Assembly: GCA_964542025.1 (NCBI GenBank)
Contig: CAZISY010000001.1
Location: 8,749 to 72,748, forward strand
DNA length: 64,000 nt
Source: an uncultured Verrucomicrobiota bacterium
Lineage (GTDB): Bacteria > Verrucomicrobiota > Kiritimatiellia > RZYC01
Reading direction: 5' to 3'
Positions 4,812-28,938 of the stretch are shown piece after piece (the stretch's first letter is position 1; each line of letters begins with the position of its first letter). The notes beneath the pieces were generated by a model, which was given only the letters and a program-made list of their open reading frames with translations, did no database searches and was not told the origin of the DNA. The translations under genes and the position numbers were made by a program.

Positions 4812-4813
4812 CC

Positions 4814-10990: not shown

Positions 10991-11308
10991 TTGAATCAAT
11001 GGGAATTATTAAAAATGACATGCAGTGGCAGACATGCGGAAAAAAGGTCGTGCGGAGGAGGTTGCAGCGGGTGTTCGTCGGTGGATTGTACGCCTGCGGG
11101 GGATGCGCCGTTCGGGCTGCGTTTGGTGATGATGGCCGGGCTGGTTTTTATCCTCCCATTGCTGGCGCTGTTGGGGATCTCCTTTTTTGCGCATGACCAC
11201 GGTCTGCGGAGTACGGGTATGGTGATCGGCAGCTTCCTGATTCTCCTGGCTGTATTGCCGATGATCTTTCGGCGTATTTTCAATCGAAAGGTGCAAAAGA
11301 CGAAATGA
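10991..11308 (+). CDS. rseC: RseC/MucC-family small membrane protein (SoxR-reducing-system type) preceding rnf
   Basis: Cys cluster CGGGCSGCSSVDC followed by two TM helices. The stop overlaps the rnfC ATG (ATGA). The start is TTG at 10991 or ATG at 11015. Confidence 0.45.
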   Translation: MNQWELLKMTCSGRHAEKRSCGGGCSGCSSVDCTPAGDAPFGLRLVMMAGLVFILPLLALLGISFFAHDHGLRSTGMVIGSFLILLAVLPMIFRRIFNRKVQKTK

Positions 11309-12657: not shown

Positions 12658-12704
12658 ATAAAAAAAACACCGGGCTGACAGAAAACACAGTGAGGATTGA
12701 AAGT

Positions 12705-13676
12705 ATGGCCGTGAATGACGAAAATAAAACAGTGTATGAGGTCGCATGCAGTCCTCATGCCCATGCCGCCGTGACAACAGCCGGTATCATGACGGATGTG
12801 CTGATCGCCCTGATTCCTTTGATGCTCGCGGGGGTACTGGTGTTTGGCCTGGCTGGGGCCAAACAGATCCTGGTGGCCGTTGGAAGTGCCTGGCTCGCAG
12901 AGGCGGTATTCACCGGGATGCGAAAAAAAACATTCAGTTTGAAAGACGGCTCGGCAACCATCACCGGCGTGATTCTGGCGCTGTCCCTGCCGGCCTCCGC
13001 CCCCTGGTATATTGCCGTGATCGGCTCGTTCGTGGGGATCGGCATTGGGAAAATCATTTTCGGCGGGTTGGGCTGCAACCTTTTTAATCCGGCCATGGTC
13101 GGTCGGGCATTTGTCATGATTGCGTTTCCCTCGATGATGGGCGCCTCTGCCTACATAGTGGCGGGAAGTCATGTGGATGCCCTTACGGCCGCCACCCCGT
13201 TGACTCTTTTTAAAATGGAGGGCATCACCACGGGGCTCCGTGCGCTTTTCCTGGGAACCACCAATGGGTCCGTCGGAGAAACGAGTGCGCTGGCCTGTTT
13301 GCTGGGAGGCGCCTATCTGTGCATCCGGCGTACGGCCGCCTGGCAAATCCCCGCCGCCATGATCGGAACCATGGCGCTGATCAGCGGCCTGATCGCTCAT
13401 TTCAACGTGCTTGCGGTTCTTCACGAAATCATGTCCGGGGCCGCCCTGTTCGGGGCCTTTTATATCGCGACAGATCCGGTTACCAGCCCGGTCACTCCGA
13501 AGGGCCGCTGGATCTTTGGTGCCTTTATCGGCGCAATGGTTATGTTGCTCAGAACACTCAGCGGATATCCGGAAGGCGTCATGTTTGCGGTGTTGCTCGC
13601 CAATGCGGTAACGCCGTTGATTAATCGGTGGACCGTTCCGATGCCCGTGGGCGGGCCTGTGCCGCGTAAAAAATGA
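12705..13676 (+). CDS. rnfD: Rnf complex subunit D
   Basis: Polytopic membrane protein in the NqrB/RnfD family; the ORF track's upstream extension is spurious. The start is estimated at MAVNDENK (+/-1 nt; my nucleotide count and the ORF track disagree by one base). Confidence 0.85.
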   Translation: MAVNDENKTVYEVACSPHAHAAVTTAGIMTDVLIALIPLMLAGVLVFGLAGAKQILVAVGSAWLAEAVFTGMRKKTFSLKDGSATITGVILALSLPASAPWYIAVIGSFVGIGIGKIIFGGLGCNLFNPAMVGRAFVMIAFPSMMGASAYIVAGSHVDALTAATPLTLFKMEGITTGLRALFLGTTNGSVGETSALACLLGGAYLCIRRTAAWQIPAAMIGTMALISGLIAHFNVLAVLHEIMSGAALFGAFYIATDPVTSPVTPKGRWIFGAFIGAMVMLLRTLSGYPEGVMFAVLLANAVTPLINRWTVPMPVGGPVPRKK

Positions 13677-13720
13677 GAATGTCAAATGTCAAGGGCTGAC
13701 CCCATATGAAATGACCCCAT

Positions 13721-14302
13721 ATGAAAACATATATCAGGGATGGTTGGTTGATTCTGCTGCTGGCAGTACTTTTTGGCGCCGGGCTTTCCGGTGTTCAAAA
13801 GGGGCTCAGCGGAAAAATTCAGGAGAACAAAAACGCGGATACCATGAGTCAGATTCCGAACCTGACGCCCGGCGCCGTGCGGGGCGATCCGGAACAGTAT
13901 GGCGAATTGCTGGTGTATAAAACATGGACCGCGCAGAACGAACAGGCCGGATGGGTGGTGGCGGCTTCCGGTCAGGGCTTTGCCGACCGTATTGAATTGC
14001 TGATCGGACTGAATTCCGATGCGTCTATCATCACGGGGCTGTATGTGCTGTTCCAAAATGAGACTCCCGGGCTGGGCAACAAAATCGTCGATGATGGTGA
14101 GGGCACCTATCGCGCACAGTTTGTCGGGAAATCTGCCCTGGAACCGCTCGCGGTAACCAAAAATCGTGAAGCGGCAGTGAATAATAATAAGATTGATGCG
14201 GTCACGGGGGCCACGATTTCATCCGACAGCGTGGTGGATATTGTGAATCGCGCCGTGCGTAGTTTTCGCGCTCAGCTTGCCATGCAGAAGGAGGCCCAAT
14301 GA
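13721..14302 (+). CDS. rnfG: Rnf complex subunit G (FMN-binding)
   Basis: Single N-terminal TM helix and the FMN-binding motif region (GATISS). Standard position in the operon. Confidence 0.85.
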   Translation: MKTYIRDGWLILLLAVLFGAGLSGVQKGLSGKIQENKNADTMSQIPNLTPGAVRGDPEQYGELLVYKTWTAQNEQAGWVVAASGQGFADRIELLIGLNSDASIITGLYVLFQNETPGLGNKIVDDGEGTYRAQFVGKSALEPLAVTKNREAAVNNNKIDAVTGATISSDSVVDIVNRAVRSFRAQLAMQKEAQ

Positions 14303-14925
14303 ACACTGATCAGGGACCCACACCGCTTGAACGTTTTCTCCGGGGTATACTGCCCGAGAATCCCGTGTACCGCCAGGTCCTGGGCACCTGCCCGACCCTG
14401 GCCGTGACCAACGGTATGCAGGCCGCGCTGACCATGGCGGTATCCACCATGTTTGTCCTGGTCTGTTCCAATGTGATTATCAGCCTCATCCGCGGACTGC
14501 TGAAGCCGTATTTGCGCATTCTGGTTTTTACATTGACCATCGCTGCTTTTGTGACGGTCGCGGACAAGGTGGTGGCCGCCTATCTGTATGCCATGAGCAA
14601 GCAGTTGGGCCCTTATTTGCCGCTGATTGTGGTGAACTGCATCATTATCGGCCGCGCGGAAATATGCGCCTCCAAACAGGGTCCGGTCACGGCGTTGTTT
14701 GACGGATTGGGGCAGGGGCTTGGTTTCACGCTTGCGCTGGCGAGTCTGGCCACCGTGCGTGAAATTCTGGGATCGGGCACTTGGATGGGGCTGCCGGTGC
14801 TTTCACCGTTTGGATGGCCATCGTGGGTGGTGATGGTGCTCCCTCCGGGCGCATTTTTCACGCTGGGCATTCTGCTGGGCATTGTGAATCGGATCGGTGA
14901 GTTGCGCGCTCAACGCTCCAAATAA
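14299..14925 (+). CDS. rnfE: Rnf complex subunit E
   Basis: NqrD/RnfE family membrane protein. ATGA overlap with rnfG. Confidence 0.9.
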   Translation: MNTDQGPTPLERFLRGILPENPVYRQVLGTCPTLAVTNGMQAALTMAVSTMFVLVCSNVIISLIRGLLKPYLRILVFTLTIAAFVTVADKVVAAYLYAMSKQLGPYLPLIVVNCIIIGRAEICASKQGPVTALFDGLGQGLGFTLALASLATVREILGSGTWMGLPVLSPFGWPSWVVMVLPPGAFFTLGILLGIVNRIGELRAQRSK

Positions 14926-14931
14926 AAGGGG

Positions 14932-15678
14932 ATGACGATGGATTATTTCGTTTCGATTATGCTGATTGCGATCAGTGCGGCGATCGTGAATAACTTCGTC
15001 CTGCACTTCTTTGTGGGGATCTGTCCGTTCATCGGGGTTTCCCGACGGGTGGATGTGGCGTTCGGGATGGGGTGTGCAGTGACCTTTGTGATTACCATTG
15101 CCGCCATGATGTGCTGGGCGCTCACCAATTATGTGCTTCGTCCGGGCGCGGCGGTTCCCCTGTGGCTGACCGGACACGCCATGGACCTTTCGGTGCTGAG
15201 CTATATCGTCTATATTTTCGTCATAGCGGCATCTGTGCAGTTTGTGGAAATGTACATGCGGAAATATTTCCCTCCGCTGTATAAGGCGTTTGGTGTTTAC
15301 CTGCCGCTGATCACCACGAATTGCTGCATTCTCTTTGCCTGCCTGAACATCATGGCGCATGTTTCCGGAGTGGAGAATCCGGCCGATCGATGGGGGCTGC
15401 TGGAAGCTGTAACGTACTCTTTTTGCGGGGGTGCGGGATTCACCCTCGCGATCATCATCATGGCGGGGATACGCGAGGAACTGGATCTCTGCGATGTGCC
15501 CGGCTGTCTGCGCGGAGTCGGGATTACGCTTTTGGTGGCGGGAATCCTGTCACTGGCTTTTATGGGGTTTACCGGGGTGGATCGCGGCATGGAGAAGGCT
15601 TTGAAGCGCTGGGCCGGGCAACAGGAATCGGCACCTGTTTCATCCCCGCAACACGAAGCGCCGGCGCATGAGGCGTAA
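14932..15678 (+). CDS. rnfA: Rnf complex subunit A
   Basis: NqrE/RnfA family membrane protein with a short C-terminal extension. Confidence 0.9.
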
Positions 15679-15700
15679 TCGTTCTCTCAAGGAGTGAAAC

Positions 15701-16609
15701 ATGGATATCGTTTTTGTAGCGGCAGTGATCATGCTGGTTTTGTCCGTGGCGGGCGCGCTCATTTTGGGATGGGCCAATAAAGCCTTTCATGTGCCTGTGA
15801 ATCCGCTTGTGGAAAAAATTAACGGAGTGCTTCCGGGAGCGAACTGCGGCGGGTGCGGATATGTGGGTTGCAACGAGTATGCCGAGGCCGTGGCTTCCGG
15901 CGCGGCTCAGCCGGATAAATGCACGGTGGGCGGCGAAGAGGTCGCCGCAAAAGTTGCCGAGATTCTCGGCGTCACGCTCGAGGCCTCGTGGCCGTATCGT
16001 CCGGTGGTGCATTGCGGGGCCACCTATGGTCAGCGTAAGGGACGTATGGATTATCGGGGCGAACGAACCTGCGCGGCCGCCAATCTGGTTTGCGGTGTGC
16101 AGTCGTGTACGTACGGATGTCTGGGATTCGGCGATTGTGAACAGGTTTGTGCGTTTGATGCCATTCATGTGAAAAACGGCCTGGCGACCGTGGATTATAC
16201 GAAGTGTACCGGATGCGGCGCCTGTGCCGGAGCGTGCCCGCGCAATATCATCAATATGGTTCCGTTCAAGAAGGAACGGATGCTGGTGATTTCCTGCTCC
16301 AACAAAGATATGGGCAAAGAAGTGCGTGAGGTATGCGAAGTGGGATGCATAGGCTGTCGTGCCTGCGAGCGGGCATCGGGCGGGGCCATTCGTGTGGAAA
16401 ACAATCTGCCGACGATCAATTATGAAGAGTACAACCCGGAGACCATGAATGCCTCCATCATGGCTATGCAAAAATGCCCGATGCAGCGCATTCTTTACGT
16501 CGGCAAACCGTCGCCGGAGGACGTCGGCAGCGTTCAGGATCAGCCCGTTCCGACAGTGGTTACCGCCGATTTTAAATCCACGGTGGATCAGACCACATGG
16601 CGCGGATAG
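15701..16609 (+). CDS. rnfB: Rnf complex subunit B (ferredoxin-like)
   Basis: N-terminal TM helix, CGGCGYVGC motif and several 4Fe-4S ferredoxin motifs. Confidence 0.9.
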   Translation: MDIVFVAAVIMLVLSVAGALILGWANKAFHVPVNPLVEKINGVLPGANCGGCGYVGCNEYAEAVASGAAQPDKCTVGGEEVAAKVAEILGVTLEASWPYRPVVHCGATYGQRKGRMDYRGERTCAAANLVCGVQSCTYGCLGFGDCEQVCAFDAIHVKNGLATVDYTKCTGCGACAGACPRNIINMVPFKKERMLVISCSNKDMGKEVREVCEVGCIGCRACERASGGAIRVENNLPTINYEEYNPETMNASIMAMQKCPMQRILYVGKPSPEDVGSVQDQPVPTVVTADFKSTVDQTTWRG

Positions 16610-16645
16610 CGGCGGACGCAGTCAATCATGGACACGGTGCCTGGC

Positions 16646-18031
16646 TCACAGAACCGGCCAGCGGGGTTTAATCTCCAGTCCGCTGCGTTTGGCCAATGCG
16701 CGTTGACGAACACAGGCCTCTTCCACGATGGATTCCTCATCCAGCGTCAGCACCTTGCGATGCCGCATAACGAGGTCGCCGTCGATAACCACTGTATCCA
16801 CATCGGAGCCGTGTGCCGAGTAGGCCACTGCGGAAACCGGATCCCAAATGGGCGTGAGGTGCGGCGCATCGGTATTGATCAGAATGAAGTCGGCCCTTTT
16901 CCCAACTTCCAGTGAGCCGCACTGGTCGGCGATTCCCATGGCTTTGGCGCCGTTAATGGTGGCCATTTCAAGAATAGTCTCGGCAGGCAGCGCGGTGGGA
17001 TCATTCTGTTTCAGAGCGGCCAAATAGCTGACCATGCGCATATCGCGGATCATGTCGTAGGTGTTGTTGCTGGGCCCGCCGTCGCAGCCCAGCGCCACAT
17101 TGACGCCCGCATCCAGCATCCCCCGGATGGGTGCAATGCCGGCGGCGGTTTTAGAATTGGATGCCGGGTTGTGCGAGACGTGCGTCCCGGTTTCCTGCAT
17201 GACGCGCCAGTCTTCTTCATCGGTCCATACACAATGCGCGAGAACCGTTCGGGGGCCCAGATAGTGGTGCTTCAGCAGAAAATCCAGCGCGGAACGGCAC
17301 CCGACGGAGCGTGCAAAGTCGAGATCCTGCATGACTTCCGAATTATGAACCGTCATTCCCATGTTGCGTTCACGGGCCAGGAGGGCCATCTCGTCAAAGA
17401 GCGACGGTGTGACGCCGCCGGGGGTGCGTGCCCCGAACCAAACCTGGATGCGTCCATCTGCCGCGCCGTTCCAGCGGTCATACATGTGGAGTGTGTTTTC
17501 GATGCAGCGGTGACCGTCGGCTTCCACCATGCCCGGATACATCGTCAGTTCGGATTTGGCGTAGGCGGGTTTATCCATCACAATTTTTCCGATGGCGGCG
17601 CGCAGGCCGGATTGCTCCACCACATGGGCCACGCCGTCAAAGCCGTAGCGTTCCGCGAGCATACATTCGATGAATCCGGTGGTTCCGGATTTGATCATTT
17701 CGAGCGCGCACAGAGAGGCGCTGGTGCGTCCATCATCGGCGTCGTAATTGCCTTGCAGCACCCATACCCGCTTGAAAAGCCAGTCAATCAGGCTGAGGTC
17801 ATCCGCACAGCCCCGGATCATGGCCTGAGCGGTATGCACATGCGTGTCGATCAGTCCGGGCATGAGAATCCACCCATGACAGTCGATCACGGTTTCGCCG
17901 GGATATTTTTCTAAAAGTTCGGAGGATTTTCCCAGATCGGCAATCTGTTTTTCGCGGGTGAGAAGTGCACCGTTGGCAATGATATGCCGTTGCGGATTGA
18001 CGGTGATCAGTGTGGCATTTTTGAATAGCAT
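16646..18031 (-). CDS. Amidohydrolase-superfamily deaminase of the MtaD/SsnA/ATZ-TRZ family
   Basis: GLIDTHVHTAQ metal-binding motif and a conserved HxxxE...D C-terminal part. The start is taken at MLFKNATL with RBS GGAGGG. The ORF track's 5' extension to 18220 is probably spurious. Confidence 0.8.
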   Translation of the reverse strand: MLFKNATLITVNPQRHIIANGALLTREKQIADLGKSSELLEKYPGETVIDCHGWILMPGLIDTHVHTAQAMIRGCADDLSLIDWLFKRVWVLQGNYDADDGRTSASLCALEMIKSGTTGFIECMLAERYGFDGVAHVVEQSGLRAAIGKIVMDKPAYAKSELTMYPGMVEADGHRCIENTLHMYDRWNGAADGRIQVWFGARTPGGVTPSLFDEMALLARERNMGMTVHNSEVMQDLDFARSVGCRSALDFLLKHHYLGPRTVLAHCVWTDEEDWRVMQETGTHVSHNPASNSKTAAGIAPIRGMLDAGVNVALGCDGGPSNNTYDMIRDMRMVSYLAALKQNDPTALPAETILEMATINGAKAMGIADQCGSLEVGKRADFILINTDAPHLTPIWDPVSAVAYSAHGSDVDTVVIDGDLVMRHRKVLTLDEESIVEEACVRQRALAKRSGLEIKPRWPVL

Positions 18032-18294
18032 GAGAATCCCTCCGGCGGATAATTGCATTGATTCCATTGCGTTCAGCGGAAGAGGATACGCCGCGTAACC
18101 GCGGTTATGTAATGAAAATTGAAAATAAATTGAAAAAATAACTACGGATCCGGTATATAGATACGTGTCTAAGGGACTTGAAACTTGACATTGCCTGCAG
18201 GATGCGGGCAGTATTTGCAAGAGAAACCAGTTGTCAGTTTAAAACCGAAACGGAATCCGTTGAAACCTGGCACTTCATAGGAGGAGCTCGTCCG

Positions 18295-18999
18295 ATGAGT
18301 GCAGCGTATCTTGACCGATTAAAAGCAGCTATTCTCGAAGGGGAAGAGGATGATGCCGCTCTGGCCGCCCGCGAGGCGTTGGAAGCCGGTGTGGCGCCCA
18401 TTCAACTGATCAATGAGGGCATTCAGCAGCCGCTGGAAAAAATCGGGAAGGATTTTGAAAACGGCGAATGCTTTTTACCTGAACTCATTCTCGTGGGAGA
18501 CGCAGCGCGTGCCGCGACCGACGTCATCATGCCGAAACTTTCTGCCGGGGAACGTGCGGATGGTTTGCATGGCACCGCCGTTATCGGCGTGGTGTCCGGC
18601 GATTTGCATGACATCGGAAAGAACATTGTTTCCGCTTTTCTGGCGGCCCAGGGGTTGAAGGTGATTGACCTGGGTTGCGATGTGAGCCCCAAGCGTTTTG
18701 TGGATACGGTGGCGGAGCAGGATGCGCGTTTCATTGTGATCTCCACGCTGCTGACCACCTCCCGTCCATTTTACCGGCAAATCGTCGACAATCTCAAATC
18801 GCGCGGTCTGCGTGAAAAAACCTATGTGCTGGTTGGCGGAGGGCCGGTGACTCCGGCGTGGGCCCGCGAAGTGGGGGCGGATGCCTACGGACGTGATGCC
18901 AAGGATGCCGTGGCCTGTTGCCGGGAGCTGTTGGCTTCCAGCGCAAAAGCGCCGCTGGCCGAACCGCTGATTATCAATGCGCTTCAGAGCAAGGCTTGA
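18295..18999 (+). CDS. Corrinoid (cobalamin-binding) protein cognate to a methyltransferase (MtmC/MttC-like)
   Basis: B12-binding cap helix bundle followed by a Rossmann B12-binding domain with a DxHxxG-type motif (GDLHDIGKN). RBS GGAGGAG. Confidence 0.85.
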   Translation: MSAAYLDRLKAAILEGEEDDAALAAREALEAGVAPIQLINEGIQQPLEKIGKDFENGECFLPELILVGDAARAATDVIMPKLSAGERADGLHGTAVIGVVSGDLHDIGKNIVSAFLAAQGLKVIDLGCDVSPKRFVDTVAEQDARFIVISTLLTTSRPFYRQIVDNLKSRGLREKTYVLVGGGPVTPAWAREVGADAYGRDAKDAVACCRELLASSAKAPLAEPLIINALQSKA

Positions 19000-19044
19000 T
19001 CATCAGCTATCTCATCCCTGTAAAATCCGAACCAAGGAGTCACC

Positions 19045-20430
19045 ATGCACCAGAAGCCTGATATTGTTGAAATTCTGCGCCGTACAAACAGTGGGGAATA
19101 TTGTCCGCTCAAAGAATGGGACGTGAAGCGGATTCCGCGAACAGTCCGGGCCATGCTGAAAAAGTATGGCCTGGAAAAGACGATGAATCCGGAGCAGCCG
19201 GTCAATTTGGATCCGGCACTGGCCGATACCTTTTTCAAAGCCGGTTTCGAGCTGGCACTGGAACTGGGTATGCTGTGCGAGCCGACCGAACGTATTATAA
19301 AAATTTCCGAAGATGAGCTGCGCAGTGCGTTGAAACACGCGCCTTCGCAATTGGAACTCGGCTTTGGAAAAGATAAGCGCATCATGAAGTCGCGAACCCC
19401 GTCGGATCCCTATCCGATGATGTTTGGCGCCTCGCTGGGCATCACGATTTCTGAAGACGTGTGGCCATACTACATTGAAGGCATTGTACGGCAGAAAGAA
19501 GTGGATTTGCTCGAAGGCGGGTCGCTGGTTTCCGTGTTTGGGCTGGATGTCATGCCGGGTACGCCATCGGAAACGCTGCTGGGTTACGTGCAGGGGCGCC
19601 GTCACCGGGAGTTGCGCAAGCAGGGCGGGCGCGAAGGGATGCCGGGCATCGGCAATATCTCGGCGGTCACGGAGTTTGGTCAGTTCTGCTATGGCACCAA
19701 GGGCGGTTTCTATAACACCGACCTTTCGCTGATTTTGTTCCCGTCCGAGTTAAAGGTGAACAATCAGACGCTGCACAAAGTGGTGCATACGCTGGCGATG
19801 GACGGCTTGGTTTTTGCGGGATCGCCGGCCATGATCGGCGGTATGCCGGGTCCGGCGGAAGGCGCCGTGCTGTCCTGTATTGCCTGTGCGCTGCTTCAGT
19901 ATGCCGTGCTGCAGGCGAGTGTCGGCGGCGGAGAAATTTACGACATCCGTTACCTGGCGAATGTGAACCGCGAGGGCCTGTGGGCATTGAGCGTGACGCA
20001 TCAGGCGCTGAGTCGGAATACGCATATCCTGACGCACGGCATAGCCAACGAAGTGTCCGGACCGGGCACGGAAGCCTTTTTGTATGAAATCCTGGTGGGG
20101 GTGGCCGTGATTGCTGCATCGGGTGCTTCCTTTTCCACCGGCCCGCGCGCGGCAGGCGGCAAGCTGCAGGATTACATCACGCCACTGGAATGCCGATTCT
20201 GCGCCGAAGTGGCGCATGCGGCCTCGGGCATGGAGCTTTCGAAGGTCGCTGAATTGGCGAAGCATTTCCTGCCGAAATACGAAGCACGGATCAAAGATCC
20301 GGACATCGGAAAACCCATTCAGGAGGTTTGGGATCTCAGGAATTTCAAACCGACTCCGGAATATCACGCGATCTATCAGCGTGTGAAACAGGAAGCCATT
20401 GACTTCGGCGTGCCGATGGATCCTTTTTGA
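19045..20430 (+). CDS. MtmB-family (monomethylamine methyltransferase family) protein with no amber codon (non-pyrrolysine)
   Basis: Co-linear similarity to methanogen MtmB as I recall it (N-terminal CP-KEWD-KRIP...KKYGL...FKAGFEL; C-terminal TPEY..Y). The 461-aa ORF is uninterrupted. RBS AAGGAG. Confidence 0.8.
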   Translation: MHQKPDIVEILRRTNSGEYCPLKEWDVKRIPRTVRAMLKKYGLEKTMNPEQPVNLDPALADTFFKAGFELALELGMLCEPTERIIKISEDELRSALKHAPSQLELGFGKDKRIMKSRTPSDPYPMMFGASLGITISEDVWPYYIEGIVRQKEVDLLEGGSLVSVFGLDVMPGTPSETLLGYVQGRRHRELRKQGGREGMPGIGNISAVTEFGQFCYGTKGGFYNTDLSLILFPSELKVNNQTLHKVVHTLAMDGLVFAGSPAMIGGMPGPAEGAVLSCIACALLQYAVLQASVGGGEIYDIRYLANVNREGLWALSVTHQALSRNTHILTHGIANEVSGPGTEAFLYEILVGVAVIAASGASFSTGPRAAGGKLQDYITPLECRFCAEVAHAASGMELSKVAELAKHFLPKYEARIKDPDIGKPIQEVWDLRNFKPTPEYHAIYQRVKQEAIDFGVPMDPF

Positions 20431-20510
20431 TCGGTGAGTGTAGAGGATCTCGCGGGCGTGTCCGTCGGAATTGGCTGCAACCATAACAGTCAACAGAAAG
20501 CGGGAGGTGT

Positions 20511-21530
20511 ATGATGAGCAAAGGACCGTGGAAACTTTGGGTCATGCTTGTTTTGTTAGGTGCGGCGGCAGTCGTGCAGGCAGAGCAGCCCAAAAAACTG
20601 AAAGTGGCCTTGATCACCAACACCACCGTGGAAGAACCGTGGAACACGGCCGCGATTCAGGCATTTGACCGGGTGATTGCCTTGAAGCCGCATGGACTGA
20701 ACATGGAGCTGAAGGTGCAGGAAAATGTCGCCATGACGGATGGGGAGCGCGTACTGCGCACCTATGCGCAAACCGGCGAGTATGGCATCATCTGGTGTCA
20801 GGGGCAATATCCGGATGCGGTGGAAAGTCTGCATGAGGAGTTTCCTGACATCTGCTGGGTGGAAGCGGGGTCGGCCTATAAGCCGCTTGGCGGGAATGTC
20901 TATTGGGTGCAGATGTATGTGCATGAACCGGCTTATCTGCTCGGGATGCTGGCGGGAATGATGAGCAAAAACAACACCATTGGTGCGGTTGCGGCTTATC
21001 CGTTTCCGAATGTCAATCTGCCGATCAATGGATACATTTCCGGAGCCAAATCGGTGAATCCCGCGATCCAGGTGAAGATGACCTACATCGACAGCTGGTT
21101 CGATCCGGCCAAAGCCAAGGAGTCGGCCCTGGCGCAGATTTCTGCAGGAGCTGATGTGATCTATGCGGAACGCTTTGGTCCTTTCGAAGCGTGCGCGGAC
21201 AGGAACGTATTCGCGTTCGGACATTACGTGGATCAGAGTTCGCTGGCACCCGATGCGGTTCTGGGATGCACACTGGCTCTCTGGGATCCGGCCATTCAGT
21301 ACATCGTCAATGTATGGCGGGATCATGTGGTGAACGGAAAAGCGTATGATGGCCCGATGGCTGAAATCGTATTCAGCATGGCCCAGGGCGGAAGCGGAGT
21401 GGCCTTGTCGTCCACACTGGCTGAAAAAATTCCGGCGGAGGTTAAGGCCAAATTCGATACCGCCCGGCAGGGCATCATGGATGGATCGCTGAAAGTGCCG
21501 TTCAGCGAAGTGCAGGTTCTTTCCGACTAG
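20511..21530 (+). CDS. BMP-family (Bmp/PnrA/TmpC nucleoside-type) ABC transporter substrate-binding lipoprotein
   Basis: Signal peptide, then the BMP-family fold pattern (KVALITN..., GAD.IYAE). Confidence 0.8.
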   Translation: MMSKGPWKLWVMLVLLGAAAVVQAEQPKKLKVALITNTTVEEPWNTAAIQAFDRVIALKPHGLNMELKVQENVAMTDGERVLRTYAQTGEYGIIWCQGQYPDAVESLHEEFPDICWVEAGSAYKPLGGNVYWVQMYVHEPAYLLGMLAGMMSKNNTIGAVAAYPFPNVNLPINGYISGAKSVNPAIQVKMTYIDSWFDPAKAKESALAQISAGADVIYAERFGPFEACADRNVFAFGHYVDQSSLAPDAVLGCTLALWDPAIQYIVNVWRDHVVNGKAYDGPMAEIVFSMAQGGSGVALSSTLAEKIPAEVKAKFDTARQGIMDGSLKVPFSEVQVLSD

Positions 21531-21547
21531 TCGGGTGAAGGCATTTC

Positions 21548-21581
21548 GTCACGGCGGGGCGAGCGCCCCTGCCGTGACGGA
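21548..21581 (+). other. Intercistronic stem-loop between the SBP gene and the ATPase gene
   Basis: GTCACGGCGGGGC-gagc-GCCCC(t)GCCGTGAC, a 13-bp stem with one bulge and no U-tract. Confidence 0.4.
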
Positions 21582-21661
21582 TCATGCGGGACGGAAATCA
21601 ATCCGGTTTGACGGCCGGGCGGGGAGACGGCTTTTTGTGCAAAAAAACGGCTGATAAAGAT

Positions 21662-23215
21662 ATGAAAAACGAAACACAGAGCCCCGTGACAAGCCGTGAA
21701 ACGGATGAGCAGCCGGTTCTGCTTCGTGTCGAAAACCTTTGTAAAAAATTCAGCAGTGTCCAGGCCAACGACCAGGTGTCGTTTGAGGTTCGGAAAGGGG
21801 AGATTCATTGTCTCCTTGGGGAAAATGGCGCCGGAAAATCCACCATGGCGGAGTGTCTGTACGGCACGTATCAGCCGGATTGCGGCACAATAACGTTTAA
21901 AGGGAAACCGATCAAACTGTCTGCGCCCCGGGATGCGATTGAAATGGGCATAGGCATGGTGCATCAGCATTTTGTGCTGGTGCCGCCGATGACGGTGGTT
22001 GAAAACATTATCATCGGGACGCAGCACAAAGGGTTGGTTCTGAAAACGGCGGATGCTGAAAAGAAAATTCAGAAACTGTGCGATGAGTACGGCATTGATT
22101 TGAATATCCACGCCGCGATCAAAGAGCTTTCGGTCAGTCAGCAGCAGTGGGTGGAAATTCTGAAGGCTCTTTATGTGGGTGTGGAGCTGTTAATTCTGGA
22201 TGAACCCACCGCCGTACTCACACCGCAGGAAATTACGGGTCTTTTCAATACGGTCAAAGCCATGGCGAAACAGGGGCTTTCCGTGATTCTGATTACCCAT
22301 AAATTTGCCGAAGTACTGGATATTTCCGACCGTATCACGGTATTACGGAAAGGAAAGTTGATCGGTACGGTGAATACCCGGAGTGTGAATGAGCGGGAAC
22401 TGGCTCAGATGATGGTGGGACGGGAAGTGGTGTTCCGCGTGGAAAAGGAGCAGCTCGCTCCAGGGGATGTCGTCCTGCGCCTGGAGGGTGTTTCGCTCCG
22501 AAATGCTGCAAAAACAAAGAAACTGGATGGGATCAGCCTGCAGATTCGAGAGCATGAAATTCTGGGGTTGGCCGGTGTTGGGGGGAATGGGCAGCGGTCG
22601 TTATATGATGCGATCATCGGTGTTTCGCCTGTGGATGAAGGGCGTATTCTGCTTTTGGAAAATGATTTGGTCTGTCAAAACGTGGCGCAGCGAATGCTGG
22701 CGGGATTGGCAGGCATTCCGGATGATCGCATTAAACAGGGACTTCTGATGGATTTTTCTGTTCAGGAGAGCATTATCCTGGGGCGTCAAAATCAACCGCA
22801 GTTCTCCCGGGCCGGGTGGCTGTGCAAGCGAAGCATAAGGCAGTTTGCGGAACGGGCGATTGCCGATTACGAAATTGCCGTTCCGCATTGTGATGGGCGA
22901 ACTGCCACGCTTTCCGGCGGCAATCTGCAGAAGGTGATTCTTGCGCGCGAATTATCCAATAACCCGAAGTGCGTGATTGCCAGTCAACCTACGCGCGGAT
23001 TGGATGTGGGGGCGATTGAATATGTGCATCGCCGCCTGCTGGACCTGCGCCGTGACGGGGCCGCCATTCTGCTGATTTCCGAAGATTTGGACGAATTGTT
23101 TACGCTGTCCGACCGGATTGCCGTGATCTACAAAGGGCGAATCATGGGAGACTGCGGGGTCCATGAAATTACCCGTGAAAAAACAGGACTGCTGATGGCG
23201 GGGATCGCTTCATGA
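21662..23215 (+). CDS. ABC transporter ATP-binding protein with duplicated ATPase domains (sugar/nucleoside type)
   Basis: Two Walker A motifs (GENGAGKST, GVGGNGQ), two signature motifs and two Walker B motifs. The start is taken at MKNETQ; the ORF track starts at 21584. Confidence 0.8.
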   Translation: MKNETQSPVTSRETDEQPVLLRVENLCKKFSSVQANDQVSFEVRKGEIHCLLGENGAGKSTMAECLYGTYQPDCGTITFKGKPIKLSAPRDAIEMGIGMVHQHFVLVPPMTVVENIIIGTQHKGLVLKTADAEKKIQKLCDEYGIDLNIHAAIKELSVSQQQWVEILKALYVGVELLILDEPTAVLTPQEITGLFNTVKAMAKQGLSVILITHKFAEVLDISDRITVLRKGKLIGTVNTRSVNERELAQMMVGREVVFRVEKEQLAPGDVVLRLEGVSLRNAAKTKKLDGISLQIREHEILGLAGVGGNGQRSLYDAIIGVSPVDEGRILLLENDLVCQNVAQRMLAGLAGIPDDRIKQGLLMDFSVQESIILGRQNQPQFSRAGWLCKRSIRQFAERAIADYEIAVPHCDGRTATLSGGNLQKVILARELSNNPKCVIASQPTRGLDVGAIEYVHRRLLDLRRDGAAILLISEDLDELFTLSDRIAVIYKGRIMGDCGVHEITREKTGLLMAGIAS

Positions 23216-24282
23216 AAATCGGTTACTACAAGCTTGAAAAACGGCCGCATGTCTCCTGGTTAATCCAGTTTCTTTCCATATTGATTGCCCTGGCGGGCGC
23301 CTTTTTGCTCGGGGCGCTGCTGATCGTGAGTACGGGTGCCGGGGTGGGTGAGGCGTATGCCGCACTTTTCAAGGGTGCCTTTGGAAGCAGAAACGCCTTT
23401 CTGGAAACGCTGGTACAATCCACACCGCTCATTCTGTGCGGGCTGGCGATGATTGTCGCGTTTCGTGCGCGGGTGTGGAACATCGGAGCGGAAGGTCAGT
23501 TCTTTGCGGGGGCCATGGCGGCAGCCTGGGTCAGTATGAACCTGAACGACAAGCTTCCGTACGGGCTGCTGATTGCCGTGATTCTTCTTGCAGCGATGCT
23601 GAGCGGCGCATGCTGGGCGGTAATTGCCGCGTACTGCAAAGTGCGGTTCAATGCCAACATAATCATCGTAACCGTCATGATGAATTATATCATTACGTTT
23701 CTGCTCTCTTATCTGCTCGGCAATCCCTGGCGGGAACCCGGTTCCTACTTCATGCAGACGGCGCGTTTTGAGCCGATCACCTATCTGCCGCGCTTCTTCT
23801 CCAGTCGTTTGCACCTGGGCTTTTTCAATGCGCTGATTGCGGCGCTGGCGGTGTATGTCATTATCTGGAAAACATCACTGGGCTACACCATTCGCGCGGT
23901 CGGCGTGAATCCGGTGGCATCGCAGTACAAGGGCATCCAGATTAAAAAAACCATTTTGATCGTCATGATACTCAGCGGCGCGCTGGCCGGGCTGGCGGGC
24001 GGAGGAGAAATCGCGGGATTGCAGCATCGATTGCGCCTGGATATTTCCACGGGCTACGGCTTCACGGGCGTGATCATTGCGCTGCTCGGACGCTTGAACC
24101 CCGTGGGTGTGATTCTGGCAGCCGTCTTTTTCGGGGCGCTGGTGAATGGTTCAACGCACATGCAGATATTCACCGGGGTGCCGGTGGCGCTGGTGCAGTC
24201 ACTGCAGGGAATCGTGTTGATCTTTCTGCTCATGTCCGACGTGCTGACGCGGTACCGAATCAGGAGGATATCCCCATGCTGA
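23212..24282 (+). CDS. ABC transporter permease (BPD_transp_2 family)
   Basis: Polytopic membrane protein. ATGA overlap with the ATPase gene. Confidence 0.8.
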   Translation: MKIGYYKLEKRPHVSWLIQFLSILIALAGAFLLGALLIVSTGAGVGEAYAALFKGAFGSRNAFLETLVQSTPLILCGLAMIVAFRARVWNIGAEGQFFAGAMAAAWVSMNLNDKLPYGLLIAVILLAAMLSGACWAVIAAYCKVRFNANIIIVTVMMNYIITFLLSYLLGNPWREPGSYFMQTARFEPITYLPRFFSSRLHLGFFNALIAALAVYVIIWKTSLGYTIRAVGVNPVASQYKGIQIKKTILIVMILSGALAGLAGGGEIAGLQHRLRLDISTGYGFTGVIIALLGRLNPVGVILAAVFFGALVNGSTHMQIFTGVPVALVQSLQGIVLIFLLMSDVLTRYRIRRISPC

Positions 24283-25226
24283 CTGATCTGCTCACCCTGA
24301 ATTTTCTGGAAAGCCTGTTGTCGGGCATGATGCGCATTTCAACGCCGCTGCTGCTGGCTGCTCTGGGCGAGTTGATCACGGAGCGGGGCGGCGTGCTCAA
24401 TCTGGGCGTGGAGGGGACCATGCTGGTGGGCGCGTTTACCGGATTTGTGGTGTCCTACTACTCCGGGAATCTTTATCTGGGTGTTTGCCTGGCCATGGTA
24501 TCGGGCGGATTGCTCAGTCTCCTGATGGCGTTCATGACGTGTACGCTCAAACTCGATCAAATTGTCTCCGGACTGGCGCTCAATATTTTCGGCGGGGGTT
24601 TGGCGTTTTACGGCTACCGGGTGGCTTTTCAGGATGTGGGCAGCAAAAATCTGCCCACCATCACTACGTTCAGCGCCGTAAAAATCCCCGGCCTTTCGCA
24701 GATCCCCGTCATTGGTCCGGTTTTGTTTTCTCAGCATCTGCTGACGTACATCGCCGTATTGCTGGTTCCGTTGATCGCCTGGTTTCTGTACCGGACGGTA
24801 CCCGGCCTTACGCTGCGGTGCGTGGGGGAAAATCCGCGTGCGGTAGATATGCGCGGAATCCCGGTGATGCGTTATCAGTATCTGGCCGTCATTTTCGGGG
24901 GCATGATGTCCGGGATGGCCGGCGCCTACCTGACGGAGGCCGCGGCGGGACTCTTTGTTCCGGATATTGCGGCGGGCCGGGGATGGATCGCCATTGCGAT
25001 CGTGATATTCGGCGGCTGGCGTCCGATTCCCATTCTGCTGGCCGCTCTGTTTTTCGGCATGCTGGATTCCTTCCAGCTTCAGGTGCAGGGCATCGGCATA
25101 CGGTTTCCGTATCAGATTTTATTGGCCCTGCCGTATATCCTGACGATTCTGGCCATCATCCTGCGCGGCACACGAACCGGCGAACCCATTTCCCTGGGGA
25201 TCCCGTATCAGCGAGAGAAAAGCTGA
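24276..25226 (+). CDS. ABC transporter permease (second permease)
   Basis: Polytopic membrane protein that overlaps the previous permease by 7 nt. Confidence 0.8.
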   Translation: MLTDLLTLNFLESLLSGMMRISTPLLLAALGELITERGGVLNLGVEGTMLVGAFTGFVVSYYSGNLYLGVCLAMVSGGLLSLLMAFMTCTLKLDQIVSGLALNIFGGGLAFYGYRVAFQDVGSKNLPTITTFSAVKIPGLSQIPVIGPVLFSQHLLTYIAVLLVPLIAWFLYRTVPGLTLRCVGENPRAVDMRGIPVMRYQYLAVIFGGMMSGMAGAYLTEAAAGLFVPDIAAGRGWIAIAIVIFGGWRPIPILLAALFFGMLDSFQLQVQGIGIRFPYQILLALPYILTILAIILRGTRTGEPISLGIPYQREKS

Positions 25227-25228
25227 CC

Positions 25229-25990
25229 ATGAATGGCGTCCGATTATCCTTTCGCGAACTGCCGGATTCGGGGTGGCAGCTTCAAAAGCAGATTACCGCC
25301 GACGACTGGCCGCTGTCAGTGCGCGCAAAGGATGTTCTGAAAAGTCAAAAAATGGACCCGGATCAAATCCGCTCGCGACGCCCGGCCCTTTTTGAAATCG
25401 CCGAGCGCATGCAGCATGAAGCCTCCCGCCTGCTGGCTCCAAAACTAACCTATCGGATTTGGCCTGTGGAGTCGTTAGAGGGTACGTTATACCGGTTGGG
25501 CGGAGGCGCTCTGCTGGATCGTACGCCAATCGCCGAGTATGTCCGGGATGTGCGATTCTTCGTGGCCGTGCTTTTTACCGTAGGCGGAGAATTGGATCAA
25601 TTGGTACGCGAAAAATCGGCCTGTCGAATGGCGGAGAGCCTGATGGCCGATGCTGTCGGCAATGCCGCCATGGCACAGTTTTCGCACATGATCAGCCGCA
25701 CCCTTCAGCGCATGATTGAAAACGCCGGTTCGGGTTCCGCCGGGCTTCTGCTGCAGCCGGGTATTCGCACCTGGCCCCTGGCCGATGGGCAGAAAACCAT
25801 ATTCGGGCTTGTGGACGGTTCTGAAATTGGCGTAGAAATTCATGAGAGCGGCCTGATGACGCCGAACAAAACGTGCTCGGGAATTATGGCCATAGGAAAT
25901 GATGTGACTACGCAAAACCAGATAGCGCCATGTGACATGTGCATGATGCACGATACCTGCCCCTACCGCGGAACCTATACGCATGACTGA
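25229..25990 (+). CDS. Uncharacterised protein translationally coupled to the RACo gene. It may be an accessory of the corrinoid system; an activation-domain-like fold is only a guess.
   Basis: Starts 3 nt after the permease stop. Its last 8 nt overlap the RACo start. C-terminal Cys/His-rich motif CDMCMMHDTCPYRG. Confidence 0.4.
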   Translation: MNGVRLSFRELPDSGWQLQKQITADDWPLSVRAKDVLKSQKMDPDQIRSRRPALFEIAERMQHEASRLLAPKLTYRIWPVESLEGTLYRLGGGALLDRTPIAEYVRDVRFFVAVLFTVGGELDQLVREKSACRMAESLMADAVGNAAMAQFSHMISRTLQRMIENAGSGSAGLLLQPGIRTWPLADGQKTIFGLVDGSEIGVEIHESGLMTPNKTCSGIMAIGNDVTTQNQIAPCDMCMMHDTCPYRGTYTHD

Positions 25991-27782
25991 ACCATCCTGT
26001 GTGATTACTTTCGAGCCGATCGGCCTGCGCGTAATGGCCGGCCCCGGCCGGACATTGCTGGAGGCCGCGCGTGATGCCGGTATACGCATGACGTCGGTTT
26101 GCGGCGGCCTGGGCACCTGTGGAAAGTGCCGCGTTCAGGTCATTAAGGGAGAGGTGACTGCGCCGCGCGGAGACACGGCTCATATCACAGACACAGAATG
26201 GGCCCAGGGCGTGCGGCTGGCCTGTCTGAGCATTCCGCGAGGCGATGCGGTCACCGTATACATTCCCCCGGAATCGCTTGAACTGCGGCAGCAGCTTCAG
26301 GTGGAATGTCAATTCGTGCGCTCCGCGCCGGATAACGATTTGCAGCTGGTGCGCCTGAATCCGCCTGCTCCGACGCTGTCTGATTTGCGCGATGATGTCT
26401 CGCGCATATGCGATCACCTGAAATCCGTTCTGTACCGCGATATCACAATACCTCATGCGTTAATGAAGACGCTGTCCAATACGGTCCGCGCCGCCGGTTG
26501 GGATGCGACCGCCGTCGTGCTGCGCGGAAGGCTCACAGCACTTCTTCCGGCGAACCGAAAACCGTTCGGTTTGGCCGTGGATATGGGTACCACAAAAGTG
26601 GCCGCCTATCTGGTGGATCTGCAGGAAGGGCGCGTTGTGGATTCGGAAGGCGCCATGAACGGTCAGGCGGCGTACGGGGAGGATGTGGTCAGTCGCATCG
26701 CCTGCGCCAACGAAAGCCGCGGAAATGCGGAACGGTTGCGCGCCGTTCTTTGCGATACCGTCAATCAGCTCGTGCAGACACTCTCGGAACGACACGGGCT
26801 GATTCCTGAACAATGGGTGGATGCCGTATTGGTGGGCAACACCGTCATTCATCATCTGTTTGCCGGTTTCCCGGTTCGCCAGTTGGGAATGGCGCCCTAT
26901 ATCCCGGCTGTGACAGAACCCATAACGCTGGAGGCCGAAAACACGGGCCTTTCCATTCATCCGGCGGCACGGGTTTATCTGCCCTCCAATCTGGCCGGCT
27001 ACATCGGGTGCGACCATGTCGCCGCACTGACCGCAGAACAGATTTATGATTCTGATGAAACCGTGATGCTGTGTGATATCGGCACCAATACGGAAATTAC
27101 GCTTCGGCACAACGGAAAAATGAGTTGCTGTTCCTGCGCATCGGGTCCCGCCTTTGAAGGCGCACACATTAAGTTTGGAATGCGCGCCGCATGCGGTGCG
27201 ATTGATCATGTGGTGATTCAGCAGGGACGGGTGACCTGCACGACCATTGATCAGGACCAGCCTGTGGGCCTTTGCGGCAGCGGCGTATTGGATGCCGTGG
27301 CCCAGAGCCTGGCTGTCGGAGCGCTTTCGGAAGCCGGCGGACTCATCGCCGGGCATCCGCTGGTGGAAGCGTTTGGAAACGAACGCGCCGTATGCCTGAA
27401 CCGGGATGCGCCGGTTTTCCTTGCGCAATCGGATGTCAGCGTGATCCAACTGGCCAAAGGAGCCATCCGGGTCGGGATCGACATTTTGCTGGAAGACGCC
27501 GGCATCCAGCCGCACGACGTGAAGCGATTTATTCTTGCGGGCGCGTTCGGCACCTATATCGATCCTGAAAGTGCGTTGACTATCGGCATGTTTCCACCCT
27601 GGCCGTCGGCCGTGATTCATCAGGTAGGCAATGCCGCAGGGCGCGGGGCGGTGCATCTGCTGCTTTCCGATTCGATGAAGCAGCGCGCACGAACCATCCG
27701 GGATCACATGCACTATGTGGAATTGACGACCTATCCAAAATTCAGCCGAAAACTGGCGCAGGCCATGCTTTTTCGTCCGTAA
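25983..27782 (+). CDS. RACo-type reductive activator of corrinoid enzymes (2Fe-2S ferredoxin domain plus ASKHA ATPase, COG3894/DUF4445)
   Basis: N-terminal plant-type 2Fe-2S motif (CGGLGTCGKCRV...C). The remaining ~500 aa is an ASKHA fold with a C-x-C cluster (MSCCSCASGPAFEG). Length 599 aa. Confidence 0.8.
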   Translation: MTEPSCVITFEPIGLRVMAGPGRTLLEAARDAGIRMTSVCGGLGTCGKCRVQVIKGEVTAPRGDTAHITDTEWAQGVRLACLSIPRGDAVTVYIPPESLELRQQLQVECQFVRSAPDNDLQLVRLNPPAPTLSDLRDDVSRICDHLKSVLYRDITIPHALMKTLSNTVRAAGWDATAVVLRGRLTALLPANRKPFGLAVDMGTTKVAAYLVDLQEGRVVDSEGAMNGQAAYGEDVVSRIACANESRGNAERLRAVLCDTVNQLVQTLSERHGLIPEQWVDAVLVGNTVIHHLFAGFPVRQLGMAPYIPAVTEPITLEAENTGLSIHPAARVYLPSNLAGYIGCDHVAALTAEQIYDSDETVMLCDIGTNTEITLRHNGKMSCCSCASGPAFEGAHIKFGMRAACGAIDHVVIQQGRVTCTTIDQDQPVGLCGSGVLDAVAQSLAVGALSEAGGLIAGHPLVEAFGNERAVCLNRDAPVFLAQSDVSVIQLAKGAIRVGIDILLEDAGIQPHDVKRFILAGAFGTYIDPESALTIGMFPPWPSAVIHQVGNAAGRGAVHLLLSDSMKQRARTIRDHMHYVELTTYPKFSRKLAQAMLFRP

Positions 27783-27831
27783 TTTTATAAAACGCTCAGG
27801 GGGGAAAATGATGGCAAAGGAGGGAGAACCG

Positions 27832-28935: not shown

Positions 28936-28938
28936 CGG

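Follow-up and report, generated by a model that had tools for sequence, protein, structure and literature searches.

We analysed a stretch of 64,000 nucleotides from an uncultured Verrucomicrobiota bacterium (contig CAZISY010000001.1), referred to here as the window, in which a 461-aa open reading frame (ORF) encodes a relative of MtmB, the methanogen methyltransferase whose gene carries an in-frame amber codon read as pyrrolysine (Pyl). The gene lies in a same-strand run in which a corrinoid protein, the MtmB-like protein, a Bmp-type importer, an accessory protein and a RACo-type reductive activator follow one another with gaps of -8 to 80 nt, and in which methyltransferase, corrinoid protein and activase are thus encoded together. 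The MtmB-like protein is very probably a functional, Pyl-independent enzyme, a predicted substrate:corrinoid methyltransferase (MT1), and its neighbouring genes carry most of the functional information on it. The genes and features of the locus, in window coordinates, are:

16646..18031 (-), divergent COG0402 amidohydrolase of the purine/triazine deaminase type (Amidohydro_1, 220 bits)
18292..18999 (+), cognate corrinoid protein with B12-binding_2 and B12-binding domains (PF02607 and PF02310) and DLHDIG as its DxHxxG motif
19045..20430 (+), MtmB-family methyltransferase without Pyl, predicted MT1, 461 aa (PF05369, 1L2Q, fold and dN/dS)
19648..19650 (+), codon ATC for Ile202, aligned with pyrrolysine-202 (UAG) of Methanosarcina barkeri MtmB1
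20511..21530 (+), Bmp/PnrA-family ABC substrate-binding protein of the purine-base-binding subgroup (PF02608, 108 bits)
21584..23215 (+), ABC ATPase with two ABC_tran domains (PF00005, two stretches)
23212..24282 (+), ABC permease, BPD_transp_2 (PF02653, 143 bits), overlapping the ATPase gene by 4 nt
24276..25226 (+), ABC permease, BPD_transp_2 (PF02653, 149 bits)
25229..25990 (+), 253-aa accessory protein, weakly MetH-activation-like (sub-threshold PF02965)
25983..27782 (+), RACo-type reductive activator with an N-terminal 2Fe-2S part and linker, middle and ASKHA parts (PF14574, 243 bits; PF17651, 168 bits; PF00111; PF17650)
27808..28935 (+), glycerol-dehydrogenase-family gene (PRK09423, 458 bits against a cut-off of 336)

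The MtmB-like ORF begins with ATG, is preceded by an AAGGAG ribosome-binding site 8 nt upstream and contains zero internal stops. Its product matches PF05369 (MtmB) at 236.3 bits against a cut-off of 25, with residues 6-455 covering profile positions 2-449 of 450, and in a phmmer search of the PDB its residues 7-456 align with positions 9-456 of M. barkeri MtmB1 (1L2Q, E=4.7e-50). BLASTP places it at 29% identity to MtmB1 over 448 aa (E=3e-55), while no model matched it in the NCBIfam search. An AlphaFold2 model computed from 17 members of its clade (predicted TM score, pTM, 0.83) recovered 1NTH/1L2Q in Foldseek at TM scores of 0.88-0.89 (rmsd 2.9), with MttB as the next fold at 0.45, which indicates that the similarity is specific to MtmB and does not extend to TIM barrels at large. 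A generic TIM-barrel likeness is ruled out by this difference together with the full-length profile match. The first-pass annotation, made from the letters alone, had called an uninterrupted 461-aa ORF of the MtmB family here, and on both the reading frame and the family it was right; the generic barrel likeness that it had named as a first possible refutation is the one excluded here.

We also identified 49 superfamily-conserved positions that are retained in the protein, the majority of which are identical in MtmB1 as well; this core includes R196, G198, D226, E235, K237, E272, G339, P340, T342 and E348. A further set of polar and aromatic residues is invariant and specific to the clade (R191, E210, Q213, Y216, M267, Y286, E297, Y299, N308, H331, N335 and C383), and these clade-specific residues fall mostly within or beside loops modelled with low confidence, which are expected to line the mouth of the barrel.

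At the position of Pyl, the segment GGREGMPGIGNISAVTEF aligns with AGRPGMGVXGPETSLSAQ of 1L2Q, and pyrrolysine-202 (X) falls on Ile202. The pairing is gapless, with GRPGMGV-X-GPETSL of 1L2Q set against GREGMPG-I-GNISAV of the MtmB-like protein. The archaeal motif GMGVOGPETSL, as given in the first-pass annotation, and the segment that it had matched to it both agree with this alignment, and its claim that an ordinary residue stands in for Pyl is borne out by the isoleucine encoded by ATC. Ile202 is invariant in the 17 aligned clade members, which come from several phyla and share the motif G-R-x-G-M-x-G/A-I-G-N/S-I-S/C-A-V-T-E-F-G-Q-F. Four further positions of MtmB1, E229, E259, Q333 and Y335, align with L229, G259, I333 and N335; the four are taken to surround Pyl in MtmB. 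A tRNA scan of the 64-kb window found no tRNA-Pyl or tRNA(CUA), the sole tRNA being tRNA-His, and no pyl-like gene came up when its roughly 40 ORFs were screened with Pfam. TAG is seldom used as a stop in the window, ending three of 39 genes.

The clade to which the protein belongs spans 59-98% identity to it in a large protein collection. Among contigs sampled at one genome per species, its hosts are Kiritimatiellae/Verrucomicrobiota, Chloroflexia/Anaerolineales, Spirochaetia (Oceanispirochaeta and Marispirochaeta) and Acidimicrobiia, with identities of 59-96% across these groups, and the 17-member alignment holds 136 invariant columns, that of Ile202 included. The two closest orthologues compared, from a Kiritimatiellae metagenome-assembled genome (MAG; locus L006) and a Verrucomicrobiota MAG (L007), are 95-96% identical in amino acids and 84% identical in nucleotides; the ratio of nonsynonymous to synonymous substitution rates (dN/dS) to these is 0.02-0.03, indicating strong purifying selection. 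Since this constraint is joined by conservation of the clade across phyla, we regard the gene as live. The window organism is most likely related to Kiritimatiellae, and the PEP-CTERM and sulfatase-modifying-enzyme genes found elsewhere in the window agree with that.

The absence of Pyl is the rule in the MtmB superfamily rather than an oddity of this protein. An exhaustive HMMER search returned 796 superfamily clusters at 50% identity (E<1e-3), and of the 150 best-scoring representatives, 124 are at least 400 aa long and hence unbroken at the position of the Pyl codon. In an alignment of 130 sequences the GRPGM motif is conserved, while the Pyl column and the loop that follows it are hypervariable. 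A neighbour-joining tree of these sequences, which did not include MtqB (see below), sets the window clade well apart from the group around MtmB1 that represents Pyl-containing MtmB. The full-length non-Pyl representative closest to MtmB1, P0265, is 41% identical to it, with P0271 in the same cluster. We found no basis for identifying P0265/P0271 with MtqB, as their locus has no adjacent corrinoid protein and stands beside a split Pyl-type MtmB. In that locus (L076, 86..9386), P0271 lies 7 kb from a 200-aa MtmB fragment accompanied by a corrinoid protein, a URO-D gene and an ammonium transporter; the fragment is probably a Pyl-type gene split at its UAG codon.

Previous studies have already met proteins of this kind. 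MtqB of Methanococcoides methylutens Q3c (ACT9XH_RS04775) is a non-Pyl MtmB homologue that methylates cob(I)alamin with tetramethylammonium and choline, with trace activity on monomethylamine (MMA), and is the tetramethylammonium methyltransferase whose first purification dates from 1998 (PMC13044021, Front Microbiol, March 2026). In the same study, a tree of 1,061 MtmBs showed a majority to be Pyl-free and of unknown function, with MtqB near the branch of Pyl-MtmB (PMC13044021). In strain DCMF, 'Ca. Formimonas warabiya', the protein most induced by dichloromethane is a non-Pyl member of the MtmB superfamily (PMC9768040, 2022). The view in the first-pass annotation that Pyl-free relatives of MtmB had gone unstudied is therefore outdated, while its statement that the substrate is open stands for the window clade, MtqB being the only one characterised among Pyl-free MtmBs. 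Non-Pyl MtmBs have long been known, and the clade belongs to a kind that is familiar yet hardly characterised. Within the open-access literature, outside which most subscription journals lie, we found no paper in which xanthine dehydrogenase, methylpurines, caffeine or trigonelline are connected with corrinoid methyltransferases, whether of the MtmB family or of another, and no relevant paper on corrinoid or MtmB proteins with methylxanthine, homarine, 7-methylguanine or 1-methyladenine.

Around the MtmB-like gene, the corrinoid protein ends 45 nt upstream; its start at 18292 is a predicted one, the ORF opening at 18178, and its NCBIfam matches (TIGR02370 pyl_corrinoid at 190 bits, and MtgC/MtbC-like models) are all under the equivalog cut-offs. 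The RACo-type protein scores 389 bits as AcsV-like in the same database. Directly before it stands the accessory protein, which belongs to a conserved family of 228-253-aa proteins, with four members compared (window 25229..25990 (+); L004 12341..13027; L074 16460..17158; L075 12717..13448), all without a Pfam assignment and always directly before RACo. The four give sub-threshold matches to one same part of PF02965 (E 0.0012-0.08), and the window protein is homologous to the 228-243-aa pre-RACo gene of other phyla (hhalign probability 100%, E=3.7e-49). Identity of the accessory protein with DUF1638 is ruled out (hhalign probability 0.2%), and the DUF1638 protein that directly follows the corrinoid protein in Spirochaetes may play a corresponding part. 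The glycerol-dehydrogenase-family gene starts 25 nt past RACo and was not seen in the orthologous loci; its membership in the system is uncertain.

The start of the divergent amidohydrolase, at 18031, is placed at the onset of its family alignments, within an ORF that extends to 18220. Its best PDB matches are the methylthioadenosine/S-adenosylhomocysteine (MTA/SAH) deaminase 4F0R (1.4e-63) and AtzA 4V1X (1.8e-59), and its top NCBIfam matches, to 5'-deoxyadenosine deaminase, N-ethylammeline chlorohydrolase and TRZ/ATZ models, are all under the equivalog cut-offs. Orthologues of this type, 63-85% identical, adjoin the MtmB-like gene in Kiritimatiellae and in Anaerolineales/Chloroflexia loci. 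An Rfam scan of window positions 15500..29500 gave nothing significant, its sole match at E<=1 being RNaseP_nuc (E=0.41), and promoter and terminator scans around the operon returned sites no commoner than in shuffled sequence. Directly upstream of the amidohydrolase/MtmB-like cluster lies a complete rnfCDGEAB operon (11305..16609, +), which could supply the cluster with reduced ferredoxin, though nothing shows a functional link.

Reference proteins taken from the window and from the loci L001 and L004 were compared with the six-frame ORFs of all loci retrieved, and neighbour genes were counted where the focal gene reaches at least 55% identity to the window protein and the flank at least 8 kb, which holds for 37 non-redundant loci. 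The counts are:

corrinoid protein, 35/37 loci
Bmp-type binding protein, 24/37 loci
molybdenum subunit of the xanthine dehydrogenase (XDH) family, 24/37 loci
COG0402 amidohydrolase, 21/37 loci
RACo, 21/37 loci
methylcorrinoid:tetrahydrofolate or thiol methyltransferase, handing the methyl group on (MT2), 20/37 loci
further MtmB paralogue, 17/37 loci
XDH or amidohydrolase, 31/37 loci
XDH, amidohydrolase or Bmp (any), 35/37 loci

The conserved unit thus combines a Pyl-free protein of the MtmB fold and the corrinoid protein belonging to it with a reductive, ATP-dependent activator and an importer of the heterocycle type, and it sits repeatedly among purine-type deaminases and XDH-like enzymes. 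Pfam annotation of long contigs agrees with the counts. In Oceanispirochaeta (L001) the gene order is Bmp ABC transporter, RACo, MtmB-like protein, corrinoid protein, DUF1638, a YgfM-like FAD subunit, an XdhD-type molybdenum/iron-sulphur enzyme (TIGR03313, 1308 bits against a cut-off of 1102) and an MtaA/CmuA-type MT2. A JGI metagenome contig whose MtmB-like protein is 64% identical (L004) carries corrinoid protein, MtmB-like protein, a pterin-binding MT2 (PRK07535, 298 bits against 259), the accessory protein, RACo and XDH-like subunits, as well as a gene resembling purine nucleoside/uridine phosphorylases and a further URO-D gene; a divergent unit there holds an MttB-family gene, a corrinoid protein, an 8-oxoguanine deaminase (572 bits against a cut-off of 532) and XDH. 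The Chloroflexia locus L075, with a protein 82% identical to that of the window, opens with an adenosylcobalamin (AdoCbl) riboswitch and runs through GntR/UTRA, an XDH-like enzyme, corrinoid protein, MtmB-like protein, URO-D, accessory protein and RACo to a creatininase-family gene, an 8-oxoguanine deaminase (659 bits against 532), a second XDH-like enzyme and Bmp.

The AdoCbl riboswitch precedes the GntR/XDH/corrinoid protein/MtmB-like operon in two Chloroflexia loci whose MtmB-like protein is 82% identical (L008, 4262..4412, and L075, 4269..4419, both +; 52-54 bits against a gathering threshold of 50), and no purine-class riboswitch was found in the seven loci scanned, in which these were the only riboswitches. 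In Anaerolineales (L074, CAZUMA010000001.1, 1..19000) a same-strand array of about 20 kb brings together four MtmB paralogues, two corrinoid proteins, two XDH-like enzymes, an amidohydrolase, both types of MT2, the accessory protein and RACo; the paralogues in such islands come from at least four other superfamily clusters (P0157, P0158, P0129 and P0181). The molybdenum subunits of these loci give their top scores to xanthine dehydrogenase models (XdhA, PucD and Se-dependent XDH).

The binding protein offers a second view of the likely ligand. That of the window has AtzT (6PI5, E=8e-28) and a Brucella protein (3S99, E=1.4e-26) as its best PDB matches, and that of the Spirochaete locus L001 matches the same two at E=3e-79 and E=2e-80, the Spirochaete proteins being about 42-45% identical to AtzT over the compared part of its sequence. 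AtzT, a binder of guanine and hydroxyatrazine, co-purified with guanine (dissociation constant 0.11 uM, against 2.5 uM for adenine) and holds the ring between Tyr45 and Trp194 with hydrogen bonds from Ser97, Glu165, Asn218 and Asn220, while adenine is modelled in 3S99 (PMC6834077). An aromatic sandwich (Trp/Trp) is present in all clade-associated binding proteins aligned. The Spirochaete type keeps Ser97, Phe98 and Glu165 and replaces Asn218 with His and Asn220 with Thr. Taken together, these comparisons point to a flat heteroaromatic ligand that would be related, but not identical, to guanine or adenine. In two archaeal loci, of Ca. Terraquivivens (L065) and Ca. Methanomethylicia (L067), an MtmB-like protein (37-38% identical) and a corrinoid protein stand at about 10001..17400 beside a Bmp-type ABC transporter whose binding protein shows the window-type 'EPW-NT' motif with the Trp pair kept, a likeness that hints at a similar substrate class in methyl-reducing archaea.

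Compared with characterised systems, the window protein is like M. barkeri MtmB (1L2Q/1NTH) in its full-length PF05369 domain, its fold (TM 0.88), its 29% identity, the GRxGM motif before the Pyl position and an adjacent MtmC-like corrinoid protein with DxHxxG. It differs from MtmB (EC 2.1.1.248) in having Ile (ATC) for Pyl (UAG), in the unrelated loop that follows (IGNISAVTEF against OGPETSLSAQ), in its bacterial, Kiritimatiellae-like host in place of a methanogen, and in its gene neighbourhood, where a Bmp importer and a purine-type deaminase stand in place of MtbA, the MMA permease or the pyl genes. MtqB, likewise a Pyl-free MtmB-superfamily MT1 beside its own corrinoid protein, may serve by analogy as the mechanistic template, namely direct N-methyl transfer from a cationic nitrogen to Co(I). 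Unlike the window system, with its bacterial host, Bmp importer, deaminase and RACo, MtqB is archaeal and methanogenic and passes its methyl group to coenzyme M (CoM) via MtbA/MtqA; the window clade, moreover, is linked to purine-type genes, a comparison drawn from the published description of MtqB.

The non-Pyl MttB systems of Desulfitobacterium and Eubacterium (among them MtgB for glycine betaine, MtcB for carnitine and MtpB for proline betaine) follow the logic proposed for the window system, with a Pyl-free MT1, a corrinoid protein, an MT2 to tetrahydrofolate (THF) and a RamA/RACo activator. They resemble it also in the diversification of their substrate range through paralogues, and one clade locus (L004) has an MttB-family gene beside the MtmB-like one. 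Their MT1 belongs to a different fold family (Foldseek TM 0.45 to MttB), and their substrates are aliphatic quaternary amines, taken up by BCCT/Opu transporters without a link to XDH, deaminase or Bmp genes. In Pseudomonas putida CBB5, the Rieske oxygenases NdmABCDE reportedly carry out aerobic N-demethylation of methylxanthines, which depends on O2 and releases formaldehyde; if the hypothesis set out below holds, the outcome would be the same, the removal of purine N-methyl groups ahead of XDH-type catabolism, by unrelated enzymes.

We hypothesize, from this genomic context, that the MtmB-like protein is part of a corrinoid-dependent demethylase whose substrate is an imported, N-methylated, purine-like heterocycle, a reading that we consider evenly poised between right and wrong. 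Every catalytic step and the substrate class are inferred, and any specific compound is a guess. The Bmp-type ABC importer would take up a planar N-methylated N-heterocycle, the likeliest being an aminopurine methylated at a ring nitrogen that carries a positive charge or takes up a proton easily (1- or 3-methyladenine, 7-methylguanine or the corresponding nucleosides). The MtmB-like TIM barrel would then present the N-methyl group to Co(I) of the adjacent corrinoid protein, giving methyl-Co(III) and the demethylated base, which the COG0402 amidohydrolase may deaminate for purine salvage or catabolism; in other phyla, XDH-like molybdenum enzymes of the same operon would continue by hydroxylating the base. 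An MT2, presumably encoded elsewhere in the window organism and of the URO-D/MtaA or pterin-binding type in the orthologous operons, would hand the methyl group on, presumably to THF, while RACo and the MetH-activation-like accessory protein would re-reduce the corrinoid after its oxidation to Co(II).

The preference for a charged substrate has a chemical motive. In MtmB, Pyl makes the amine nitrogen a good leaving group. The characterised Pyl-free members of the MttB and MtmB superfamilies all use a nitrogen that is already quaternary (PMC13044021), and because their substrates bring this positive charge themselves, compounds with a cationic or readily protonated methyl-bearing nitrogen are favoured here; N1-methyladenine and N7-methylguanine species would fit the pattern by analogy.

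Several observations weigh against this reading. The presumed substrate class is drawn from gene neighbourhood, and the contigs compared come from MAGs that are in part of related organisms and hence not phylogenetically independent, with neighbour enrichment judged against a rough expectation of a few percent. Pyridines, pterins, triazines and aldehydes, too, are substrates within the XDH family and among COG0402 hydrolases; the molybdenum subunits are mostly just under the NCBIfam equivalog cut-offs, and the window amidohydrolase reaches 392 bits to 5'-deoxyadenosine deaminase, below the cut-off of 522. In the window binding protein the guanine contacts of AtzT are replaced (Glu165 by Asn, Asn218 by Glu and Asn220 by Phe), so that plain guanine is excluded as its ligand, which may even lie outside the purines. 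Neither an MT2 (URO-D/Pterin_bind) nor an XDH-like gene was found among the roughly 40 window ORFs, and the L006 and L007 loci, within the reach of their contigs, are likewise without either nearby; the local system is therefore incomplete in cis. Finally, the active-site loops of the AlphaFold2 model (204-218, 258-268, 291-305 and 369-375) are of low confidence.

Some of these points would suit another N-methylated N-heteroaromatic compound, such as the pyridinium compounds trigonelline, homarine and 1-methylnicotinamide, a methylxanthine of the caffeine/theobromine type, a pyrimidine, a pterin or a triazine, the demethylated ring of which would be hydroxylated by the molybdenum enzymes. This alternative is unlikely though by no means far-fetched: the XDH family is known to include nicotinate and caffeine dehydrogenases, models for 4-hydroxybenzoyl-CoA reductase and aldehyde oxidoreductase score near the XDH models, and islands of three or four MtmB paralogues suit multiply methylated compounds, to which can be added the likeness of the window amidohydrolase to triazine hydrolases (AtzA, 1.8e-59) and the loss of the guanine-contact residues of AtzT. 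Purines are nevertheless favoured by the 8-oxoguanine deaminases of the orthologous operons, which score at equivalog level (572 and 659 bits against 532), by an XdhD-type enzyme exceeding its cut-off (1308 against 1102), and by Spirochaete binding proteins that are AtzT-like and keep Ser97, Phe98 and Glu165; methylxanthines and trigonelline, moreover, would need no deaminases. Further from the heterocycles, the enzyme might act on quaternary amines as MtqB and the non-Pyl MttB proteins do, with the purine-type neighbours a coincidence. In favour of this, tetramethylammonium and choline are the substrates of MtqB (PMC13044021), the sole non-Pyl MtmB with a characterised function, and quaternary amines are those of every Pyl-free MttB-superfamily protein characterised so far. 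We consider this improbable, as no BCCT/OpuA-type betaine or choline transporter was seen among the annotated neighbours, whereas Bmp-type transporters occur in 24 and XDH or deaminase genes in 31 of the 37 loci, over four phyla. The neighbour-joining tree, too, parts the clade from the Pyl-MtmB group in which MtqB has been placed (PMC13044021), and the clade has its own invariant residues in E210, Q213, Y216, E297, Y299, N308, H331 and N335.

It is very improbable that the protein is a Pyl-free methylamine:corrinoid methyltransferase, supplied by an amidohydrolase that frees methylamine from a purine with an exocyclic N-methylamino group, such as N6-methyladenine or N2-methylguanine. The COG0402 relatives AtzB and AtzC are known to release alkylamines, AtzB falls into one PDB cluster with 8-oxoguanine deaminase (7WW2), and a trace of MMA activity is on record for MtqB (PMC13044021); however, known enzymes need Pyl for the activation of methylamine where this one has Ile, the residues taken to surround Pyl are replaced by L, G, I and N, and a dedicated heterocycle importer would still be required upstream. 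A last alternative is that the host decodes Pyl and has an mtmB with an amber codon, of which the present gene would be an inactive pseudo-paralogue. The rarity of TAG stops (3/39 genes) would agree with it and our view takes in 64 kb of the genome; it is effectively refuted by the dN/dS of 0.02-0.03 and by conservation across phyla with 136 invariant columns, and it is opposed by the gene having its own corrinoid protein, activase and transporter in the operon and by the lack of tRNA-Pyl and of any pyl gene within the window.

Returning to N-methylated purines as the substrate class, we propose, tentatively and with the balance tilting slightly against it, that the clade and the neighbouring paralogous MtmB clades form the first corrinoid-dependent, O2-independent family of N-demethylases for methylated purines and nucleobases. 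To our knowledge, the only route known for purine N-demethylation is the oxygen-dependent Ndm system, and the present one, if true, would be an anaerobic route for removing purine N-methyl groups. Compounds of the m1A and m7G type and marine methylpurines would then be an unrecognised class of methylotrophic substrates, supplying methyl groups as methyl-THF to anaerobic bacteria and perhaps as methyl-CoM to archaea of the Methanomethylicia type (L065 and L067), and one-carbon metabolism in sediments and digesters, and perhaps in methanogenic archaea, would draw on modified nucleobases as well. The notion that Pyl-free enzymes rely on substrates carrying their own charge would likewise widen from aliphatic quaternary amines to heteroaromatic cations. 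More generally, there are hundreds of Pyl-free MtmB clusters with one substrate known, and the neighbours of this clade give a short list of compounds; if the hypothesis is wrong, what remains is one more gene of a known family whose function is unknown.

Elsewhere in the window, we identified a 723-aa protein (46654..48825, -) that is a triple fusion of normally separate enzymes, namely a low-molecular-weight phosphotyrosine phosphatase (residues 4-143), an RpiB/LacAB ribose-5-phosphate isomerase (166-304) and a serine hydroxymethyltransferase (319-693). Two adjacent genes (3828..4811 and 4778..5812, both +) encode PEP-CTERM proteins that carry domains of the FGE-sulfatase (sulfatase-modifying-enzyme-like) type, while a protein of 874 aa (7999..10623, -) combines bacterial TSP3 repeats with a CBM20 starch-binding module.

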